A DNA stretch of 40,000 nt from positions 353,249 through 393,248 of the forward strand of contig NZ_JADWMY010000003.1 in the NCBI RefSeq assembly GCF_015767275.1, given 5' to 3'. The notes below the pieces were generated by a model that was not told where the DNA came from, did not search any database, and was given only the letters and a program-made list of their open reading frames with translations. This DNA comes from Herbaspirillum sp. AP02 (GTDB taxonomy: Bacteria; Pseudomonadota; Gammaproteobacteria; Burkholderiales; Burkholderiaceae_D). How positions within the stretch are numbered: the first letter of the stretch is position 1; the number at the start of each line of letters is the position of its first letter. The position numbers and the translations under genes were made by a program. This document shows, one piece after another, positions 2,019-12,152 of the stretch.

Positions 2019-2963
2019 ATGGCACTGAACCTGCGTCAGATCGAGGTATTCCGGGCGGTCATGACGACCGGTTCCATCAGCGGCGCCTCGCAATTGCTGT
2101 TCGTCTCCCAGCCTGCGGTGAGCCGCCTGCTGTCCCACACCGAGCAACGGGTGGGCTTCGCCCTGTTCGAACGCATCAAGGGCCGGCTCTATGCCACGCC
2201 GGAGGCCAAGAAACTGTTCCATGAGGTGGAGCACGTCTACCAGGCCGTGCAGCGCGTCAACGAGCTGGCCACCGACCTCTCGGAAAACCGCAGCGGCATC
2301 CTCAACATCGTCTCCAGTCCCAGCATCGGCCAGATGCTGATCCCGCAGGCCATCGCCCTGTTCCGCAACCGACATCCGGATGTCAAGCTGACCTTTCATT
2401 GCCTCAATTACGGCTATCTGAAGGATCGCCTGCTGGCGCGCCAGGCCGACCTGGGCATCATCATCCTGCCCATGGAACATCCCAGCCTGCAGGTCACGCC
2501 CCTGTGCAGCAACCGACTGGTGTGCGTGCTGCCCTACAACCATGAACTGACCCGGCGCGGCACCCTGAGCCTGGCCGATCTGCGGCCCTTCCCGCTGATC
2601 TCCTACAACCGCGATTCCCCCTTCGGCGGCATCGTCGGCCGCTTCTACCAGTCCGAGGAAGAGCCCTTGCGACCGATCATGGAAGTGGGCTCGCCGCAGA
2701 ACGCCTGTTCGCTGGTGCAGATGGGGGCCGGGGTGGCGCTGGTGGATGAATTCTCGGTACGCAGCTGGGCCGGTACCAGCCAGATGGTGGTGCGTCCGGT
2801 GGCGCGCGCGCCCATCCTGCGGGCCAACCTGGTGCATGTGCGCACCGAGCCGCTGTCGCAGCTGACCCAGGCCTTCGTCGCCGAGCTGCAGCAGCTGGTG
2901 CGGGCCCAGGGCTACGGCCTGCCGCATGAAGAGGTGGTCAATGCTATCGATGGCGAGCATTAA
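2019..2963 (+). CDS. LysR-family transcriptional regulator
   Basis: Track ORF 1968..2963. I prefer the internal ATG at 2019, giving MALNLRQIEVFRAVMTTGSISGASQLLFVSQPAVSRLL, a typical LysR HTH N-terminus. Divergent from the racemase/oxidase pair. Confidence 0.85.
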   Translation: MALNLRQIEVFRAVMTTGSISGASQLLFVSQPAVSRLLSHTEQRVGFALFERIKGRLYATPEAKKLFHEVEHVYQAVQRVNELATDLSENRSGILNIVSSPSIGQMLIPQAIALFRNRHPDVKLTFHCLNYGYLKDRLLARQADLGIIILPMEHPSLQVTPLCSNRLVCVLPYNHELTRRGTLSLADLRPFPLISYNRDSPFGGIVGRFYQSEEEPLRPIMEVGSPQNACSLVQMGAGVALVDEFSVRSWAGTSQMVVRPVARAPILRANLVHVRTEPLSQLTQAFVAELQQLVRAQGYGLPHEEVVNAIDGEH

Positions 2964-3086
2964 CACCACGTTAAGGCGTGCGCACAAAAAGGCATGCGAC
3001 AAGCACGGATGACTCCACGACAATCGTTTCCATCCTGTCCGGCCTGGCCCAGCGCCCGGTCGCCGCTGCCACCATCTCTTCATGGA

Positions 3087-4037
3087 ATGTCGCGCATGTC
3101 TTCTTCGTCCACCTCTGCTTCTTCGCTGGCCACCGCACGCGGTGTCTACACCATCTGCCCCACACCCTTCCACGCCGATGGCGGTCTGGACCTGGGCAGC
3201 ATTGCCACCCTGGTCGAGTTCCAGATCCAGGCCGGCGTCTCGGGCCTGGCCATCCTCGGTTTCCTGGGCGAGGCGCACAAGCTCTCCAATGCCGAACGGC
3301 GCGCCGTGACCGCCACCTTCGTCAAGTGCGCCGCCGGTCGCGTGCCAGTCTGGGTCGGGGTGCGCGCACTGGGCCTGGCCGGTGCCATCGAGCAAGCCAC
3401 CGAAGCCGCCGAGGCCGGCGCTGCCGCCGTCTTCGCCGCACCGCTGGACATGGCCTCGGACGCCGTGCAGTTCGATTACTACAAGTCGCTGGCGGCGGCC
3501 CTGAACATCCCGGTGGTGATCCACGATTTCCCCGACTCCTTCGGCACCGAGATCAAGGCCGAAGTGATCGCCCGCCTGGGCCGCGAAGGCGGAGTCAACT
3601 TCATCAAGATGGAAGAGCCGCCGGTAGGCCAGAAGATCAGCCGCATCCGCGACCTGGCCGGCGAATCCATGCGCATCTTCGGTGGCCTGGGCGGGGTGTA
3701 CTTCCTGGAAGAGCTGCAGCGCGGTGCGGTCGGCACCATGACCGGCTTTGCCTTCCCTGAAATCCTGGTGCGCATCTATGACCAGTTCGCCGCTGGCGAC
3801 CTGGCCGGCGCGGCGGCCACCTTCGACAAGTATTGCCCGCTCATCCGCTATGAATTCCAGCCCAAGATCGGCCTGTCGCTGCGCAAGTATGTCTACCGCA
3901 AGCGCGGCGTCATCGCCAGCGACGCCATCCGCTCGCCGGGCATGCGCATCGATCCCGAGACCGAGCGCGAACTGGAAGCCGTGATCGCCCGCGTGGGCCT
4001 GGACCTCAACCAGCGCGGCGCGCTGGTCATCCAGTAA
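3087..4037 (+). CDS. Dihydrodipicolinate synthase (DapA/DHDPS) family lyase
   Basis: Track ORF 2994..4037. Contains GVYTICPTPFHADGGLDLGSIATLVEFQIQAGVSGLAILGFLGEAHKLSNAERRAV, typical of the DHDPS/NAL family. Start is uncertain: ATG 3087 or 3096, and neither has a clear SD. Confidence 0.75.
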   Translation: MSRMSSSSTSASSLATARGVYTICPTPFHADGGLDLGSIATLVEFQIQAGVSGLAILGFLGEAHKLSNAERRAVTATFVKCAAGRVPVWVGVRALGLAGAIEQATEAAEAGAAAVFAAPLDMASDAVQFDYYKSLAAALNIPVVIHDFPDSFGTEIKAEVIARLGREGGVNFIKMEEPPVGQKISRIRDLAGESMRIFGGLGGVYFLEELQRGAVGTMTGFAFPEILVRIYDQFAAGDLAGAAATFDKYCPLIRYEFQPKIGLSLRKYVYRKRGVIASDAIRSPGMRIDPETERELEAVIARVGLDLNQRGALVIQ

Positions 4038-4047
4038 GGAGCCGCGC

Positions 4048-4836
4048 ATGGACCTGGGAATCGCCGGACGTCGCGCACTGGTCTGCGCCTCCAGCAAGGG
4101 GCTGGGCCTGGCTTGTGCCATCTCGCTGGCGCGCGAAGGCGTGGCCGTGACCATGACCGCACGCGGTGCCGAGGCGCTGGAGGCAGCCGCGCAGCAGGTG
4201 CGTGAGGCTGCCGGTGCCGCCGGTGCCACCGTCATCGCCGTGGCCGGCGACATCACCACGCCCGAAGGCCGCGCCCTGGCGCTGGCGGCCTGTCCCGATC
4301 CGGACATCCTCATCACCAACGCCGGTGGTCCCAAGCCCGGCGACTTCCGCGAGTGGTCACGGGAAGACTGGATCGCCGCCGTGGACGCCAACATGCTCAC
4401 CCCCATCGAGCTCATCAAGGCCACCGTGGACGGCATGATGAAGCGCGGCTTCGGTCGCATCGTCAACATCACCTCCGGTGCAGTGAAGGCGCCCATCGAC
4501 ATCCTCGGCCTGTCCAACGGCGCACGCTCCGGGCTGACCGGTTTCGTCGCCGGCCTGGCGCGCAAGACCGTGGCCCACAACGTGACCATCAACAACCTGC
4601 TGCCGGGCCCGTTCGAGACCGATCGCCTGCTGGCCACGGCCGCCGCCGCTGCTCGTGGGACCGACAAGAGCGTGGAGCAGGTCCTGGCGGCCCGCCGCGC
4701 CGCCAATCCGGCCGGACGTTTCGGCCAGCCCGGCGAATTCGGCGATGCCTGTGCCTGGCTGTGCAGCGCCCAGGCCGGCTTCGTCACCGGGCAGAACCTG
4801 CTGATGGATGGCGGCGCCTATCCCGGCACTTTCTGA
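4048..4836 (+). CDS. SDR-family oxidoreductase
   Basis: 262 aa. N-terminal ALVCASSKGLGLA is a TGxxxGxG-like Rossmann motif; NAGG and NITSG motifs are present. SD-like AAGGAG lies 7 nt upstream of the start. Confidence 0.85.
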   Translation: MDLGIAGRRALVCASSKGLGLACAISLAREGVAVTMTARGAEALEAAAQQVREAAGAAGATVIAVAGDITTPEGRALALAACPDPDILITNAGGPKPGDFREWSREDWIAAVDANMLTPIELIKATVDGMMKRGFGRIVNITSGAVKAPIDILGLSNGARSGLTGFVAGLARKTVAHNVTINNLLPGPFETDRLLATAAAAARGTDKSVEQVLAARRAANPAGRFGQPGEFGDACAWLCSAQAGFVTGQNLLMDGGAYPGTF

Positions 4837-4860
4837 ACGCAGACTCCGATAAGGAAGGCA

Positions 4861-6339
4861 ATGAGCATGGACTTCGACCTCACCATCCGCAACGGCCGCA
4901 TCTCCACCGACCGTGACACCTTCGTGGCCGACATCGGCGTCAAGGATGGCGTGATCGTGCGCATCGCACCGGGCCTGTCGCCCGGGCGCGAAGACATCGA
5001 CGCGGCCGGTCGCTGGGTGCTGCCCGGTGGCATCGACAGTCACTGCCACATCGAACAGCTTTCCGGCATGGGCATGATGTGTGCCGACGATTTCTATTCC
5101 GGCACCGTGTCGGCGGCCTTCGGCGGCACCACCACCATCATTCCCTTCGCCGCCCAGCATCGCGGCAAGCGCATTCCCGACGTCATTGCCGACTACGCGC
5201 AACGCGCCCGTGAAAAGGCGGTGATCGACTACGGCTTCCACCTGATCCTGGCCGATCCCGACGAGCAGGCACTGCAACACGACCTGCCGCAGGCCATCCG
5301 CGACGGCATCACCTCGCTGAAGGTCTACATGACCTACAACGCCTTGAAGCTGGACGACTACCAATTGCTGGACGTGATGGCGCTGGCCGGCAGGGAAGGG
5401 GCGCTGGTGATGATCCACGCCGAGAACCACGACATGATCCGCTGGCTCGCCTCGCGCCTGCTGGACCAGGGCCATACCGCACCCAAGTTCCACGCAGTGG
5501 CGCACGACCCGCTGGCCGAAGCCGAAGCCAGCAACCGCGCCATTGCACTGTCGCGCCTGATCGGCGTGCCGGTACTGATCGTGCACGTGGCCGGCGCCGA
5601 AACCGTGCAGACCATCCGCAACGCCAAGCTGCTGGGCGCGCAGATCTATGCCGAGAGCTGCCCGCAATACCTGTTCCTCACCGCCGAGGATATCGACCTG
5701 CCCGGTGTGGAAGGCGCCAAGTATTGCTGCAGCCCGCCGCCGCGCGACGCCAATGCCCAGGAGGCGGTCTGGGCCGGCCTCAAGGATGGCACGCTGGGCA
5801 TGTATTCCTCCGACCATGCGCCTTACCGCTTCGACGAAAGCGGCAAGCTGCCGCGTGGCGAAGACACCACCTTCAAGGAAATGGCCAATGGTGTGCCCGG
5901 TATCGAACTGCGCCTGCCACTGCTGTTTTCCGAAGGCGTGCTGGGCGGGCGCATCGACATCCACGAATTCGTGCGCCTGACCGCCACCAATCACGCCCAC
6001 ATGTATGGCCTGTCGCACTGCAAGGGCAACATCGCCGAGGGCCTGGATGCCGACCTGGTGATCTGGAACCCCGAACGCGAGACCACCATCACCGCCGACC
6101 TGTTGCACGACAACGTTGGCTACACCCCCTATGAAGGCCGGCAGATCAAGGGCTGGCCGGAGGTGGTCACCAGCCGAGGCCGGGTGGTGGTCAGCGAGGG
6201 CGAACTGAAAGTGCAGCGCGGATCGGGCCGCTATATCGCGCGCCAGTGTCCGGAACCGGCCAGCATCACGCAACGGCCGACGCGCAGCCATCTGCCGGGC
6301 TTGCTCGGCCTCAAGGGAAAAGCATGGGAGCAGCAATGA
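4861..6339 (+). CDS. D-hydantoinase / dihydropyrimidinase (cyclic amidohydrolase)
   Basis: 492 aa. Metal-binding signature GGIDSHCHIE, KVYMTY (position of the carbamylated lysine), MIHAENHD, IVHVAG and YSSDHAPY. These are the classic dihydropyrimidinase/hydantoinase motifs. Confidence 0.9.
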   Translation: MSMDFDLTIRNGRISTDRDTFVADIGVKDGVIVRIAPGLSPGREDIDAAGRWVLPGGIDSHCHIEQLSGMGMMCADDFYSGTVSAAFGGTTTIIPFAAQHRGKRIPDVIADYAQRAREKAVIDYGFHLILADPDEQALQHDLPQAIRDGITSLKVYMTYNALKLDDYQLLDVMALAGREGALVMIHAENHDMIRWLASRLLDQGHTAPKFHAVAHDPLAEAEASNRAIALSRLIGVPVLIVHVAGAETVQTIRNAKLLGAQIYAESCPQYLFLTAEDIDLPGVEGAKYCCSPPPRDANAQEAVWAGLKDGTLGMYSSDHAPYRFDESGKLPRGEDTTFKEMANGVPGIELRLPLLFSEGVLGGRIDIHEFVRLTATNHAHMYGLSHCKGNIAEGLDADLVIWNPERETTITADLLHDNVGYTPYEGRQIKGWPEVVTSRGRVVVSEGELKVQRGSGRYIARQCPEPASITQRPTRSHLPGLLGLKGKAWEQQ

Positions 6340-8238: not shown

Positions 8239-8988
8239 ATGAACCTTGCCGCCCCCATCCTCGAAATCGTCGGCCTGCACAAGTCCTATGAAGGCAATAC
8301 GGTCTTGCGCGGCATCGACCTGCGCGTGCGCACCGGCCAGCTGATCTGCGTGATCGGCCCGTCCGGCTCGGGCAAGAGCACCATGCTGCGCTGCTGTAAC
8401 CGGCTGGAAGAACCCAGCGCCGGGCAGATCGTGGTGGACGGGGTGGACATCATGCATGCCCGCACCGACCTCAACGCCGTGCGCCAGCAGATCGGCATGG
8501 TGTTCCAGCAGTTCAACCTGTACCCGCACCTGAGCGTGCTGGGCAATGTGATGCTGGCCCTGAAGAAGGTGCAGAAGCACTCGCATGCCGAGGCCGAAGC
8601 CCGTGCACGGCGGGCGCTGGAGCAGGTGGGCATGCTGGAAAAGGCGGCCGCCTATCCCGGCCAGTTGTCCGGCGGCCAGCAGCAGCGCGTGGGCATTGCC
8701 CGCGGCATCGCCCTGCAGCCCAAGGTGATGCTGTTCGACGAACCCACCAGCGCGCTCGACCCCGAGCTGGTGGGCAGCGTGCTACAGGTCATGCGCCAGT
8801 TGCGCGAGGCCGGCATGACCATGCTGGTGGTCACCCACGAGATGGCCTTCGCCCGCGCGGCGGCCGACCGCGTGGTGTTCATGGATGGTGGCGTGATCGT
8901 CGAGGAAGGTCCGCCCGAACAGATCTTCGGCGATCCGCAACAGGCCCGCACCAAGGCCTTCGTGGCCCGCTACGCCGCACAGCACTGA
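8239..8988 (+). CDS. Polar amino-acid ABC transporter ATP-binding protein
   Basis: 249 aa. Walker [10 protein letters not shown], signature LSGGQQQRV, Walker [12 protein letters not shown]. GlnQ/HisP-like. Confidence 0.9.
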
Positions 8989-8991
8989 GCC

Positions 8992-9663
8992 ATGGAGCAA
9001 TTCCTCTTTACCTTCTTCAATGCCGAGATCGCCGCCCGCTACTGGCCGGACATCCTGCGCGGCATGGGCGTCACCGTCCTGCTGAGCCTGGCCGTGATCG
9101 GCGCCGGGCTGCTGCTGGGCCTGTTGCTGGCGGTGCTGCGCGCCACCGGCAAGCGCGGCCTGGTGTTCATGGTGGTGGCCTTCGCCGATGTCATGCGGGC
9201 CTTGCCGCCGCTGATCCTGATCATCGTGCTGTTCTTCGCCTTCCCCTATATCGACCTGTCCATGTCGTCCTTCACCGCCACCTGGCTGGCGCTGAGCCTG
9301 GTGCTGGCCGCCTACGCCGAGGAAAGCATCTGGGCCGGCATCGCCTCCTTGCCGCGTGGCCAGAGCGAAGCGGCGCGCTCCACCGGCCTGTCCTGGGGCC
9401 AGACCATGGCCGCGGTGATCCTGCCGCAGGCCCTGCGCATGGCCGTGCCGGCACTGACCAACCGTGTCATTTCGATCACCAAGAACACCGCGCTGGGCTC
9501 GGTGGTGGCCCTGTCGGAAATCCTCAATACCGTCCAGGCCGCCAGCAGCAATGCCGGCAATCCCACGCCGCTGATGCTGGGGGCGGCGGCCTACCTGCTG
9601 ATCTTCATTCCGGTGGTCTTGTTCGCGCGCTGGCTGGAAACCCGCTGGCGCTGGAAACGATAG
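8992..9663 (+). CDS. Amino-acid ABC transporter permease (His/Glu/Gln/Arg/opine family)
   Basis: 223 aa, multi-TM. EAA-loop-like SLPRGQSEAARSTGLSWGQTMAAVILPQALR. Confidence 0.9.
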   Translation: MEQFLFTFFNAEIAARYWPDILRGMGVTVLLSLAVIGAGLLLGLLLAVLRATGKRGLVFMVVAFADVMRALPPLILIIVLFFAFPYIDLSMSSFTATWLALSLVLAAYAEESIWAGIASLPRGQSEAARSTGLSWGQTMAAVILPQALRMAVPALTNRVISITKNTALGSVVALSEILNTVQAASSNAGNPTPLMLGAAAYLLIFIPVVLFARWLETRWRWKR

Positions 9664-9675
9664 GAGAGGGCGCAC

Positions 9676-10350
9676 ATGGAAGCCTTGTTGCAGAATTTCT
9701 TCAACCTGGAGGTCTATCGCCAGGTACTGCCCTTCCTGCTGGGTGGCCTGTGGACCACGGTCTGGCTGTCGCTGCTGGTGATTCCCATCGGCGTGCTCTC
9801 GGGCCTGCTGCTGGCCTTGCTGGCCACCCAGAGCCGTTCACGCGCGGTGCGCATTGCGGTGGCGGTGTATGTGGACTTCTTCCGTTCCTTCCCGCCGCTG
9901 GTGCTGCTGATCCTGATCTATTTCGGCACCCCTTTCCTGGGACTGGAACTGCCCAAGCTGGTGGCCGTGGCGCTGGGCTTCATGTTCAACAATTCCAGCT
10001 ATTTCGCCGAGGTGCTGCGCGCCGGTATTGAAAGCGTGCCCAGCGGCCAGATGGAAGCGGCGCGCTCCACCGGCCTGTCGCGCTGGCAGGCGCTGGCCTA
10101 TGTGGTGGTGCCGCAGGCGGCGCGCAATGCACTGCCTGATCTGGTGGGCAATTGCATTGAGGTCATCAAGCTGACTACCATCGCCAGCGTGGTGGCTCTG
10201 CCGGAATTGCTGCGGGTGGCACGCGACGCCCAGTCGCTGGTCTACAACCCCTCGCCCATCGTGCTGGCAGCGCTGCTCTACCTGATCCTGCTGCTGCCGC
10301 TGGTGCGCTGGCTGTCGCGGCTGGAACACCGGGGCCGCAGCCTGCACTGA
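9676..10350 (+). CDS. Amino-acid ABC transporter permease (second subunit)
   Basis: 224 aa, multi-TM. EAA loop SVPSGQMEAARSTGLSRWQALAYVVVPQAAR. Confidence 0.9.
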   Translation: MEALLQNFFNLEVYRQVLPFLLGGLWTTVWLSLLVIPIGVLSGLLLALLATQSRSRAVRIAVAVYVDFFRSFPPLVLLILIYFGTPFLGLELPKLVAVALGFMFNNSSYFAEVLRAGIESVPSGQMEAARSTGLSRWQALAYVVVPQAARNALPDLVGNCIEVIKLTTIASVVALPELLRVARDAQSLVYNPSPIVLAALLYLILLLPLVRWLSRLEHRGRSLH

Positions 10351-10390
10351 TTCCACTGCCTTTCCCTCCCTCTTTCTTCCCCGCTTAATA

Positions 10391-10416
10391 CGCCGGCCGC
10401 TTCAGGCCGGCGTTTT
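10391..10416 (+). terminator. Rho-independent terminator of the amino-acid ABC operon
   Basis: Perfect 8-bp GC stem cgccggcc (10391-10398) / ggccggcg (10405-10412), 6-nt loop gcttca, then TTTT (10413-10416). Confidence 0.8.
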
Positions 10417-10420
10417 CATT

Positions 10421-10730
10421 GTGCGCCCAGCATGGGCGTACTCCTGCGGGTGCAAGTCCCGCCATAAGCTGGTCACAGTGAATGAAGTGAAGCGCAACTG
10501 CATGAGGGCGACCGAATGTGGTAAGGAAGCGTGGAGCGTAAATCGCGAGCCGATGAACAAGAATCGCATAGAAGGCGCTACCGAGCAGTGCGAGCGTGCA
10601 ATGAAGCGCGAAGCTCTTGTGACCAAGGCGAGGCGGCGTAAATGCGGCGGTTCTGCGATGAAGGAGTGCGTTCTTACCTGGGGAGGCTGCGCCTCATGCC
10701 TGAAAGGGCGTGATCAATCTCCGACCATCC
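10421..10730 (+). ncRNA. Group IIC intron domains I-III
   Basis: GTGCGCCCAGCATGGGCG...GGGTGCAAGTCCCG opens the element. GATGAAGG is at 10657-10664 and TTCTTACCTGGGGAGG at 10671-10686. A hairpin gaggc-tgc-gcctc follows (10683-10695), then a 6-bp GAAA-tetraloop hairpin atgcct-gaaa-gggcgt (10696-10711). From memory these strings closely parallel the Oceanobacillus iheyensis IIC intron (GUGUGCCCGGCAUGGGUG..GGGUGAGAGUCCCG; GAUGAAGGG..UUCUUACCCGGGGAGG). Candidate EBS1 AAUGA (10600-10604) complements the last 5 exon nt UCAUU (10416-10420). Confidence 0.7.
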
Positions 10731-11137
10731 CATTTCATTCGCGTATAAAACGCGATCCAAAAACATTTCAGAAAATGCAAACCGTACCCCTAAGGCAGGT
10801 TTGATGTGGGCCGTGAAAAGATGGTTTTCATGAGACGCAACCTCCTGATTACGCGCGCGTTGATTGCCACGCCGAACATAAGTTTTGCTTGCTTGAAAAA
10901 TTTTGGGCAAGCAAGGCAAATAGGCTTTCGCCTGCCGAAAACCCTGCCACTATGGCGATATTCGAGCACCGTGGTGACCTCCTTTTTGAACTGCAGCGTA
11001 CGTCGTTTTCTTCCATGCTGAATGCTCAATCCACGGCTACTAGACGAGTCATACGTAGTGTGAAATGAAAAACCGTACAGTCATTTGGTATGGCTTTGCA
11101 TGCATCACAACAACACCTACTGAAGGACACTTAAAGC

Positions 11138-11833
11138 ATGGGCCTAGTCATCGTTCCCGCTTTTCTGATCGCACTCTTAATTCTTTTCGTGCTCATCATA
11201 TTGGCTCTGAGAGTGCCCAAGACGCGATGGGGGAAACTGTTTTCGCTTGCTGTCGTACTGTCCCCCGTGGTCTGGCTCACGTGGGACATTCCGTATGGTT
11301 ATGTCCGGTTCAAGATGGCTTGTTACGCCGATGCCGGCTTGAAGGTCTACGAAAAGGACCTTCCTCCCGCGAAGCGGATCAGGTTGGTGGATGGCTTACG
11401 CAGCGGAGTGCACGTGTTTGAAAACTACCCATCGATACAACAGATTGAGGCACGCGACGAGGAATTCGACTATGTCAGGCCAACTGCCTACGCAGTTTAC
11501 GAAAGGGGCGAGGACGGCAAGTTGATTTCAACCTCCATGGATAAGGTCGAGAGGGTTCGAGGTTCGTTGACGCTTATTGAATCTGCCCCCTCTAAAGCAG
11601 ATTACGTGGTCAGCCAGACGCGCGAGATTTTGCCTTATCGCTTACACAGAAATCACTACACATTAAGCAGAAAAAATCAGCAGCTTGTCGCTGAGACAGT
11701 TGCCTACACCTACAAAACTGGCGATTTCATCTGGGTTGGCGCTGAATGTGGGCCGCTTGGATCAAGCTATTACGAGCTAGATACTTTACTTTCTTTTGTC
11801 ACCCGCAGCGAGAAACCGGATTTGGCGGACTGA
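11138..11833 (+). CDS. Hypothetical membrane-anchored protein (two N-terminal TM helices plus a ~170-aa soluble domain); orphan
   Basis: 231-aa ORF and the only substantial sense ORF inside the intron. N-terminus VIVPAFLIALLILFVLIILAL and LFSLAVVLSPVVWLTW are hydrophobic helices. I see no RT motifs (no YxDD block) and recognise no family. Codon usage is AT-rich relative to its neighbours. The SD is weak. Confidence 0.5.
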   Translation: MGLVIVPAFLIALLILFVLIILALRVPKTRWGKLFSLAVVLSPVVWLTWDIPYGYVRFKMACYADAGLKVYEKDLPPAKRIRLVDGLRSGVHVFENYPSIQQIEARDEEFDYVRPTAYAVYERGEDGKLISTSMDKVERVRGSLTLIESAPSKADYVVSQTREILPYRLHRNHYTLSRKNQQLVAETVAYTYKTGDFIWVGAECGPLGSSYYELDTLLSFVTRSEKPDLAD

Positions 11834-11896
11834 GAATTAACTAACTCAGGGCTTGTATCGGCAGCAGCATACGCTCAGCCACCTCAACTATTCCAA

Positions 11897-11969
11897 CTGC
11901 CCGGTGCGGACCCGCATGCCGGGTGGTGTGGGAGGGGATCGGCCACTTACTGGCCGCCCCTATTCCGAT
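11897..11969 (+). ncRNA. Group IIC intron domain V (11897-11926) and domain VI (11930-11965) with the 3' end
   Basis: Domain V folds as follows. The 9-bp lower helix pairs 11897-11905 with 11918-11926 and includes the G-U wobble of the triad (UGC here, CGC in O. iheyensis). There is a 2-nt 3' bulge AU (11916-11917), a 3-bp upper helix GCG/CGC and a 4-nt loop GACC. This is the same length and geometry as the shortened class C domain V. It is followed by GGUGGUGUG as in O. iheyensis. Domain VI is a hairpin with loop CUUAC and a single bulged A at 11962 on the 3' strand, 7 nt before ..GAU (11969). Confidence 0.65.
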
Positions 11970-12152
11970 TCCGGCGCACCACACTGTGTCGTCGTCGCGA
12001 CAGGGGCCGCCACGGTGCAAAAGGCGCACCGGGCCGGCGCTACGTGCCTGTCTTTGGTGAGTTCCCAGCCCCGAAAAGCGCAGAAATCAGGCTTTCCAGC
12101 CTGGCACGCTGTTTGCATAAAACGAGCAAAACGGTTTTTATATAAACCATCA

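Follow-up and report, generated by a model that had tools for sequence, protein, structure and literature searches.

An intron that holds a membrane-protein gene where its reverse transcriptase (RT) would be expected raises the question of whether it represents a new kind of gene-carrying mobile element or the remains of an ordinary one. Such a locus is present in Herbaspirillum sp. AP02, at positions 10421–11969 (1549 bp) of a 40,000-nucleotide stretch of contig NZ_JADWMY010000003.1 (positions 353,249 to 393,248, forward strand). This whole stretch is referred to below as the window, and coordinates given without a locus name are those of the window. A sequence-only reading had described the element as a group IIC intron with intact-looking ribozyme halves and a non-RT open reading frame (ORF), and had offered two interpretations, namely, a natural cargo-carrying intron mobilised in trans, or a dead intron whose RT had been replaced by foreign DNA. 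The analysis presented here indicates that the element is probably an RT-less class C intron whose core was replaced by foreign gene-bearing DNA, in other words a decayed one-off fossil, and that this is the most likely answer when set against a new kind of gene-carrying mobile intron.

Two ends of a class C intron

The element begins with GUGCG at 10421 and ends with ...CCGAU at 11969. The Rfam model RF02001 (group-II-D1D4-3) matches over its full length at 10502–10673, with 101.9 bits (E 7e-20; gathering score 32), and RF00029 (Intron_gpII, domains V and VI) matches end to end at 11895–11969 with 33.1 bits (E 3e-4 in a 1.8-kb search). The latter score lies below the gathering score of 40, and intact relatives of the same lineage also reach just 36–38 bits; because the class C domain V is short, the low value is not a sign of decay. 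Folding of 11880–11975 gives the hairpins of domains V and VI (DV and DVI) with the linker GGUGGUGUG between them. These covariance matches bear out the earlier proposal of a class C intron at both ends, and the RF00029 alignment and the fold reproduce the details proposed for the 3' end, that is, a DV at 11897–11926, the linker, and a DVI with a bulged A located 7 nt from the end. Judged by these matches, both ends of 10421–11969 are genuine group IIC intron sequence. Among the features of the class, we found the GUGYG and AY ends, precisely placed with respect to the empty site, the domain I (DI) core, the short DV with its 2-nt bulge, the bulged A of DVI, and the terminator target. Missing were the junction between domains II and III (J2/3) together with domain III (DIII), and an RT/maturase ORF in domain IV (DIV). 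The parts of the locus, all on the plus strand, are as follows.

10390–10413: intrinsic terminator hairpin of the ABC-transporter permease gene (9676–10350), 9 bp of which 8 are G-C, followed by TTTTCATT (terminator scan).
10421–10682: DI, from GUGCG to the closing helix CCCAG (10426–10430)/CUGGG (10678–10682); RF02001 match, 84–92% identity to relatives over element positions 1–290.
10683–10710: truncated domain II (DII), with the 5' strand of its closing helix, GCUGCGCCUCAU, and hairpin 1, GCCU-GAAA-GGGC (10698–10709); alignment, RNAalifold and covariance model R1.
10711–10719: junction filler of 9 nt, TGATCAATC, without a match in the relatives of the intron or in those of the foreign DNA, and occurring once in the window.
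10720–11137: foreign non-coding stretch 5' of the cargo gene (blastn and boundary inspection); the homologous loci are intron-free in an Rfam scan.
11138–11833: cargo ORF of 231 amino acids, with two N-terminal transmembrane helices, a soluble domain of about 170 residues, and conserved Cys62 and Cys204.
11804–11896: retained 3' part of DIV, of the type seen in RT-less relatives, starting with GCAGCGAGAAACCG (alignment and shuffle test).
11897–11926: DV in its short class C form with a 2-nt bulge, near-invariant across relatives (RF00029 alignment, fold).
11927–11969: J5/6 and DVI, whose bulged A (11962) lies 7 nt before the 3' end (RF00029, fold, near-identical relatives); comparison with the empty sites puts that end at 11968/11969.

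When compared by blastn with plasmids and fetched loci, element positions 1–290 (10421–10710) and 1461–1549 (11881–11969) match many introns, and the two arms share 84–92% identity with numerous introns of Burkholderiales and Rhizobiales. The relatives that were compared differ in what they have kept of the RT.

Metagenome locus L098: 5' arm 91.7%, 3' arm 87.9%; full-length and RT-bearing.
Paraburkholderia sp. JPY169 (L097): 5' arm 91.7%, 3' arm 85.6%; truncated RT, with a second intron nested in DIII.
Cupriavidus campinensis plasmid (L010): 5' arm 90.3%, 3' arm 87.6%; 648 bp, RT-less.
Polaromonas sp. JS666 plasmid, intron 2 (L012): 5' arm 89%, 3' arm 84% (partial); RT-bearing.
Sinorhizobium meliloti pSymB (L011): 5' arm 84%, 3' arm 84%; RT truncated at its 5' end, YADD retained.
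Rhizobium sp. CIAT894 plasmid (L095): 85.1% over both arms combined; RT-less, about 628 bp.
S. chiapasense plasmid (L096): 83.0% over both arms combined; without an intact RT ORF, the first 42 or so RT codons being left.
Escherichia coli P1-like plasmids (L013): 5' arm 75%, 3' arm 83%; 483 bp, RT-less.

The decay of the arms is slight. Seven of about 190 positions that are invariant in the 5' arm (10421–10710) of five relatives are changed in the window, and one of 48 in the 3' arm.

A catalytic core that is missing

On the 5' side, homology to seven relatives ends at 10710, within DII and just past its hairpin 1, and the bases that follow in the window (TGATCAATCTCCGACC...) are unrelated to theirs. 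All relatives, whether RT-bearing, truncated or RT-less, continue after hairpin 1 with a second hairpin (CGGC-loop-GCCG), GAGCGAGAAGUCAGCAGAGGUCGUAGUAG, a variable hairpin and GAAGGNCCGAACGA. RNAalifold predicts for the seven relatives a DII in the form of a three-way junction, where the closing helix CUCG/CGAG and the second hairpin display compensatory changes; 3' of DII come a single-stranded AGCAG and then a helix GGYC/GRCC, also with compensatory changes, which correspond to J2/3 and the base of DIII. The conserved J2/3–DIII motif GAAGUCAGCAGAGGUCGUAGUAG was not found in 10300–12100, even with up to 4 mismatches allowed. A covariance model of DII-J2/3-DIII, R1, was built from the seven relatives, on which its 130–150 bits are thus obtained by construction. 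On the window it scores 25.3 bits, which come entirely from its first 45 or so positions; in this alignment the second hairpin and DIII are deleted, and the closing helix has no pairing. The Rfam model RF01998 (group-II-D1D4-1) covers DII-J2/3-DIII in intact relatives (47.1 bits at 437–522 of L098 and 46.8 bits at 3270–3351 of L013; gathering score 35), and gives no match in the window at E<=10.

The second hairpin of DII, the 3' strand of DII, J2/3, the whole of DIII and the 5' part of DIV are therefore missing from the element. Consequently, the description of the ribozyme halves as intact-looking does not hold, since the GAAA hairpin at 10698–10709 is the first of two DII hairpins, and everything from the second one to the 5' part of DIV is gone. 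The AGC conserved in the relatives is one that we take to be equivalent, partly on the basis of the Oceanobacillus iheyensis sequence, to A287-G288-C289 of the intron of that species. In the O. iheyensis class C structure, these J2/3 nucleotides join the triad and the bulge of DV in the catalytic triple helix (PMC3669008). The predicted ribozyme of the window thus lacks an essential part of the active site as well as DIII. Without J2/3 the catalytic triple helix cannot form, and the element should neither splice nor reverse-splice.

We considered whether the GCAGCGAGAAACCG stretch at 11804 might be a displaced 3' strand of DII followed by J2/3 and DIII. This was rejected, as the stretch is collinear with the DIV of relatives that have their own DII, J2/3 and DIII upstream, and R1 gives it 7 bits. 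Of note, positions 10686–10689, in the 5' strand of the helix that closes DII, read GCUG, versus AYCU or UUCU in all relatives. These three substitutions lie close together, about 20 nt away from the breakpoint, and could reflect decay after the loss of the partner strand or a scar of the rearrangement.

A foreign interior, and an RT that was probably never displaced

The interior (10711–11803) has a GC content of 49%, compared with 59–60% for the arms and 64% for the whole window, in agreement with the impression, gained earlier from the letters, of an interior richer in AT than the arms. The segment 10720–11291, consisting of the non-coding part and the first 51 cargo codons, is 89.5% identical by blastn to metagenome loci L006–L009, in which the homologous segment lies downstream of glnA-ntrBC-like genes and upstream of a 168-residue protein sharing only its first 51 residues with the cargo. 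The segment 11123–11787 has 81% nucleotide identity to a gene of Herbaspirillum sp. DW155 that adjoins an insertion sequence (IS) fragment. Around the cargo homologues of DW155 and of four metagenome families, no intron arms were observed, and an Rfam scan gave no group II sequence. In the interior itself, Rfam at E<=10 yields only chance-level matches. At the right junction, protein homology to the cargo family stops at Arg222 (nt 11803), precisely where intron homology starts; codons 1–222 are foreign, and the last eight codons (SEKPDLAD) and the stop codon come from the intron DIV. By these homologies, the interior 10711–11803 is foreign and mosaic. A nested transposon, IS or miniature inverted-repeat transposable element (MITE) was also considered and rejected, given that the ends of the foreign segment (10711 and 11803) show neither terminal inverted nor direct repeats, that no transposase is present, and that about 200 nt of the intron are deleted and not interrupted.

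On the 3' side, the arm was correctly regarded as intron-derived in the sequence-only reading, but alignment to the DIV of RT-less relatives shows that it starts at about 11804, and not at about 11881–11897. The stretch 11804–11896 is collinear with DIV of the RT-less C. campinensis and Rhizobium elements. An identical 14-mer, GCAGCGAGAAACCG, is shared with the C. campinensis element at almost the same distance from DV (93 versus 94 nt). Local alignment scores are 17 with C. campinensis (shuffles 7.3 +/- 1.2) and 14 with Rhizobium (7.4 +/- 1.2), and 0 of 2000 shuffles reach either. The C. campinensis and Rhizobium elements have in common a DIV of about 200 nt (L010 3376–3575 and L095 about 1876–2075), which is not RT-derived.

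In line with these observations, a search for RT relics, which had been suggested as a check on the nature of the element, came back empty: translations of the interior in six frames give no Pfam match (RVT_1, GIIM), and when the RTs of L098 and Polaromonas are used as tblastn queries, neither the window nor the RT-less elements of C. campinensis and Rhizobium give a significant match (E about 1). The same tblastn search recovers the S. meliloti relic at 1e-129 and the 42-codon N-terminal relic of S. chiapasense at 4e-4. As previously proposed, the 231-residue ORF (11138–11833) is the sole sizeable sense ORF in the element and is devoid of RT motifs. Taken together, the parent intron was probably already RT-less before the replacement. 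Since the 3' part of its DIV matches the RT-less lineage, an RT was most likely not among what the foreign DNA replaced; on the simplest reading, about 200 nt of ribozyme were displaced, comprising distal DII, J2/3, DIII and the 5' part of DIV. The idea of a dead intron with foreign DNA inside is hence essentially right, with the correction that part of the core, and most likely not an RT, was replaced. The presence of the RT-less sublineage on plasmids of Cupriavidus (beta) and Rhizobium (alpha) implies that it spreads between genera, presumably by mobilisation in trans.

Insertion behind a terminator, and empty sites

Insertion behind intrinsic terminators is a hallmark of class C introns (PMC4424553). 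In the window, the intron starts 7 nt past the stem of the permease terminator, which corresponds to the class C target motif, and the same placement behind a stem-loop, with a T-run in most cases, was seen in 7 of 7 inspected relatives. Orthologous loci were fetched via the neighbouring permease (9676–10350). Herbaspirillum sp. ASV7 (L016) and a Herbaspirillum metagenome-assembled genome (L017) have an empty site in which 10420 is joined straight to 11969/70. In ASV7 it reads ...GGCGTTTTCATT followed directly by TCCGGCGC, with no target duplication. The element is also absent from H. frisingense GSF30 (L015), which belongs to the same species and has a 100% identical permease and flanks of 97–98% identity. 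In an independent Logan assembly (L014), window positions 8655–10906 recur with 100% identity, including the junction between the 5' part of the intron and the interior, and the identical cargo protein is found under several NCBI accessions from unclassified Herbaspirillum. The Logan junction, the multiple accessions and the empty sites together establish that the element is one precise insertion, that it is no assembly artefact, and that no resident DNA lies between its arms.

In GSF30, the permease stop codon is separated from the terminator by an extra element of about 265 bp (L015 6692–6956) with internal inverted repeats GACCGTTCGTCCTGAGTAG ... CTACTCAGTCCGAACGGTT. Neither ASV7 nor the window (equivalent position between 10366 and 10342–10420) has this element, which looks like an insertion of the MITE or repetitive extragenic palindromic (REP) type.

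The captured gene

The cargo protein, WP_180670732.1, belongs to a family with 37 relatives among 1.84 billion representative proteins, mostly 220–245 residues long, whose common features are two N-terminal transmembrane helices and a conserved domain in which two cysteines are nearly invariant. The ratio of non-synonymous to synonymous substitution rates (dN/dS) is 0.22 with respect to the DW155 homologue, therefore pointing to a real gene family under purifying selection. Neither Pfam, NCBIfam nor PADLOC gives a usable match for the ORF. The AlphaFold2 model is confident (predicted local distance difference test 90.9, predicted template modelling score 0.81) and consists of three helices followed by a mainly beta domain, for which Foldseek returned no significant match in the Protein Data Bank (PDB). 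The N-terminal module also occurs in the neighbouring 164-residue protein of L007 (L007 1115–2112; hhalign probability 95.6%) and in a lipase-like (GHSLGG) protein, P0005, which suggests a modular set of membrane-anchored periplasmic proteins.

As purifying selection acts on the family, and as the ORF is still intact, with a substitute tail, the gene that was captured probably still works. Signals within the foreign DNA, or read-through, would have to provide for its expression; in a crude promoter scan, sigma-70-like sites were seen neither 5' of the cargo gene nor at the corresponding boundary of L007.

A single copy

Further copies with the same cargo, which the sequence-only reading had proposed to look for, were not found in the window, plasmid, phage and metagenome searches. 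There is no second copy within the window. Against the plasmid collection, the whole element yields matches to the arms at most and the cargo protein none, and in the phage collection the whole element has no match. Exact searches of Joint Genome Institute (JGI) metagenomes returned 0 matches for the cargo upstream module, and those of JGI metagenomes and IMG/VR 0 matches for the window-specific DII strand; both are weak negatives, as exact identity is needed. A protein search with a spurious ORF that reads from the 5' arm into the interior retrieved 640 translated 5' arms, and among the best 120 of these none extends past the arm and none comes from Herbaspirillum.

How the chimera may have arisen

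The order of events that we infer is as follows. An RT-less class C intron, of the lineage that is frequent among Burkholderiales and on plasmids of Rhizobiales, would have inserted behind the permease terminator by the usual class C route, in one H. frisingense-like lineage. About 200 nt of its core would then have been swapped, unless this happened during the insertion itself, for about 1.09 kb of foreign DNA of lower GC content. The foreign piece would have brought the membrane-protein gene with 418 nt of upstream sequence, and would have broken off eight codons before the natural end of the gene. As class C introns sit outside genes, the chimera could have persisted as a harmless intergenic fossil. 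At the DNA level, a break in the intron repaired with a captured fragment would fit the ragged ends and the filler. Several points weigh against this account. A genome of the same species, with flanks that are 97–98% identical, is devoid of the insertion, so that insertion and replacement must both be fairly recent, and a two-step history is therefore less parsimonious than a single event. The arms are little decayed, as the counts of changed positions given above illustrate. Further copies or an intact parent may exist in the source genome outside the window, and the loss of activity is one that we infer from the missing domains.

A single event is what RT template switching would offer. Group II RTs switch templates readily. 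An RT-less intron RNA would reverse-splice behind the terminator, and an RT acting in trans would copy DVI, DV and the 3' part of DIV, jump to the cargo mRNA near its 3' end, copy it toward the 5' end, and jump back to the intron RNA at hairpin 1 of DII, leaving a product that is equally dead. On this view, the intron would carry a retro-copied mRNA as its cargo, and the outcome would amount to a natural retrogene (or retro-transduction) generated in bacteria by a group II intron. Such a course would account at once for the precise boundaries, for an insertion that is recent and for the good state of the arms, and it agrees with the 9-nt untemplated-looking filler at the 5' junction and with a foreign piece that is co-oriented with the intron, centred on a gene, stops within the ORF eight codons early, and is without transposon-like terminal repeats. 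However, co-orientation is expected in 50% of cases by chance, two internal switches are needed, and the 418-nt 5' leader would be unusually long, with no promoter-like site just upstream of the homologous point of L007 in the crude scan. In addition, the protein database contains no source copy of the cargo gene from the same genome, and repair of a DNA break with a captured fragment accounts for the same anatomy. We regard template switching as unlikely, and replacement of the core of an RT-less intron, followed by its persistence as a fossil, as having by far the greater part of the probability.

The proposal of a cargo-carrying group II intron, which would depend for splicing and mobilisation in trans on an RT/maturase from another locus, could draw on the precise ends and clean empty sites, on the good preservation of DI, DV and DVI, and on the RT-less relatives located behind different terminators across genera, which suggest that their lineage is mobilised in trans. 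It is not supported by the examination of the core and of the databases. J2/3, DIII and the 5' part of DIV, the usual RT-binding part, are absent; the cargo spans DII to DIV, not cleanly DIV, and truncates its own gene; cargo homologues elsewhere are never intron-borne (DW155 and the metagenome loci); and neither junction was seen a second time in the searches of the window, plasmids, phages, metagenomes and translated 5' arms. Given the missing domains and the lack of a second copy, a trans-mobilised cargo intron is very unlikely. To an explanation by two unrelated intron fragments around resident DNA, or by a chimera of the assembly, we attach slightly less weight still. Unrelated DNA of different GC content does separate the arms, but three related genomes join 10420 to 11969/70, implying that the interior is not resident, the independent assembly repeats the 5' junction exactly, and the identical cargo protein has several NCBI accessions from unclassified Herbaspirillum. 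Two separate intron fragments, in particular, are ruled out by the empty sites.

Relation to known group II introns

Class C introns such as O.i.I1 of O. iheyensis, or the closest RT-bearing ones (L098 and that of Polaromonas sp. JS666 plasmid 2), resemble the element in their GUGCG start, DI core, short DV and DVI bulged A, and in inserting just past an intrinsic terminator with no target duplication. In contrast to them, the element has no RT/maturase ORF, second DII hairpin, J2/3, DIII or 5' part of DIV, and contains 1.09 kb of unrelated DNA instead. The ORF-less class C introns of C. campinensis (648 bp) and Rhizobium sp. CIAT894 (about 628 bp) share with it arms of 85–90% identity and the same RT-less 3' half of DIV, and introns of this type represent the probable parent lineage. 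Nevertheless, ORF-less class C introns are compact (0.48–0.65 kb) and keep DII, J2/3 and DIII, whereas the 1.55-kb element of the window has lost these and harbours a 231-residue ORF. A functional class of ORF-less class C introns has been described as HYER ribozymes (Liu et al. 2024, as cited in PMC11754743). Such introns are compact (about 0.4–0.65 kb), complete from DI to DVI and free of an ORF; the window element departs from them on each count and has with them only a shared ancestry, via the 3' homology of DIV, so that a HYER-like activity is not to be expected of it.

Decayed or interrupted bacterial group II introns, such as those of S. meliloti pSymB and Paraburkholderia sp. JPY169, have likewise kept their ends while their inside is damaged. 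The damage in the window differs from theirs, consisting of replacement by a non-mobile protein-coding fragment, and not of RT truncation or of insertion of an IS or intron. Finally, a non-RT ORF inside an intron is also known from the LAGLIDADG-encoding group II introns of fungal mitochondria and Thiomargarita and from engineered cargo targetrons. In these, the ribozyme is complete, the ORF occupies a tolerated loop (DIII or DIV), and the LAGLIDADG protein drives mobility, whereas the window element has a deleted core and encodes a membrane protein without sign of a role in mobility. Its ORF, with two transmembrane helices and no Pfam, NCBIfam or PADLOC match, is not a recognisable homing endonuclease.

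The relatives present arrangements of their own. In the Polaromonas sp. JS666 plasmid 2 (L012), two class C introns, each with an RT, are arranged head to tail (2255–4086 and 4087–5936) next to a TnpB gene, the second beginning one nucleotide after the ...CCGAU end of the first. At the Paraburkholderia sp. JPY169 locus (L097 3001–6257), the 5' end of a second intron, GUGCG...GGGUUGAAGUCCC, starts in DIII (at about 3330), and there is an extra Rfam match to domains V and VI at 4665–4747. This apparently nested, twintron-like intron with its truncated RT ties with L098 for the closest 5' arm. In the E. coli IncY/P1-like plasmid pCombat11I9-3 (L013 3001–3483), the 483-bp RT-less class C intron has a complete DI, DII-J2/3-DIII, DV and DVI, and belongs with the compact, ORF-less IIC elements that have been described as HYER-like. 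Introns of this type are located behind a stem-loop beside a phage holin gene in many E. coli phage-plasmids, and were found in 96 E. coli plasmid records.

Implications for class C introns and their hosts

The element provides a well-resolved case of class C intron decay, from which it follows that intact-looking ends do not mean an intact ribozyme. Two by-products of the analysis may be useful in other respects, namely, a widespread lineage of RT-less class C introns that has a DIV of its own and is present on plasmids of Cupriavidus, Rhizobium and, for P1-like plasmids, E. coli, and a small uncharacterised family of membrane proteins with a confident predicted fold and nothing like it in the PDB. 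If the replacement was RT-mediated, it would represent the capture of an mRNA by a bacterial group II intron, parallel to LINE-1 transduction and retrogene formation in eukaryotes, and would constitute a new route of gene movement in bacteria.

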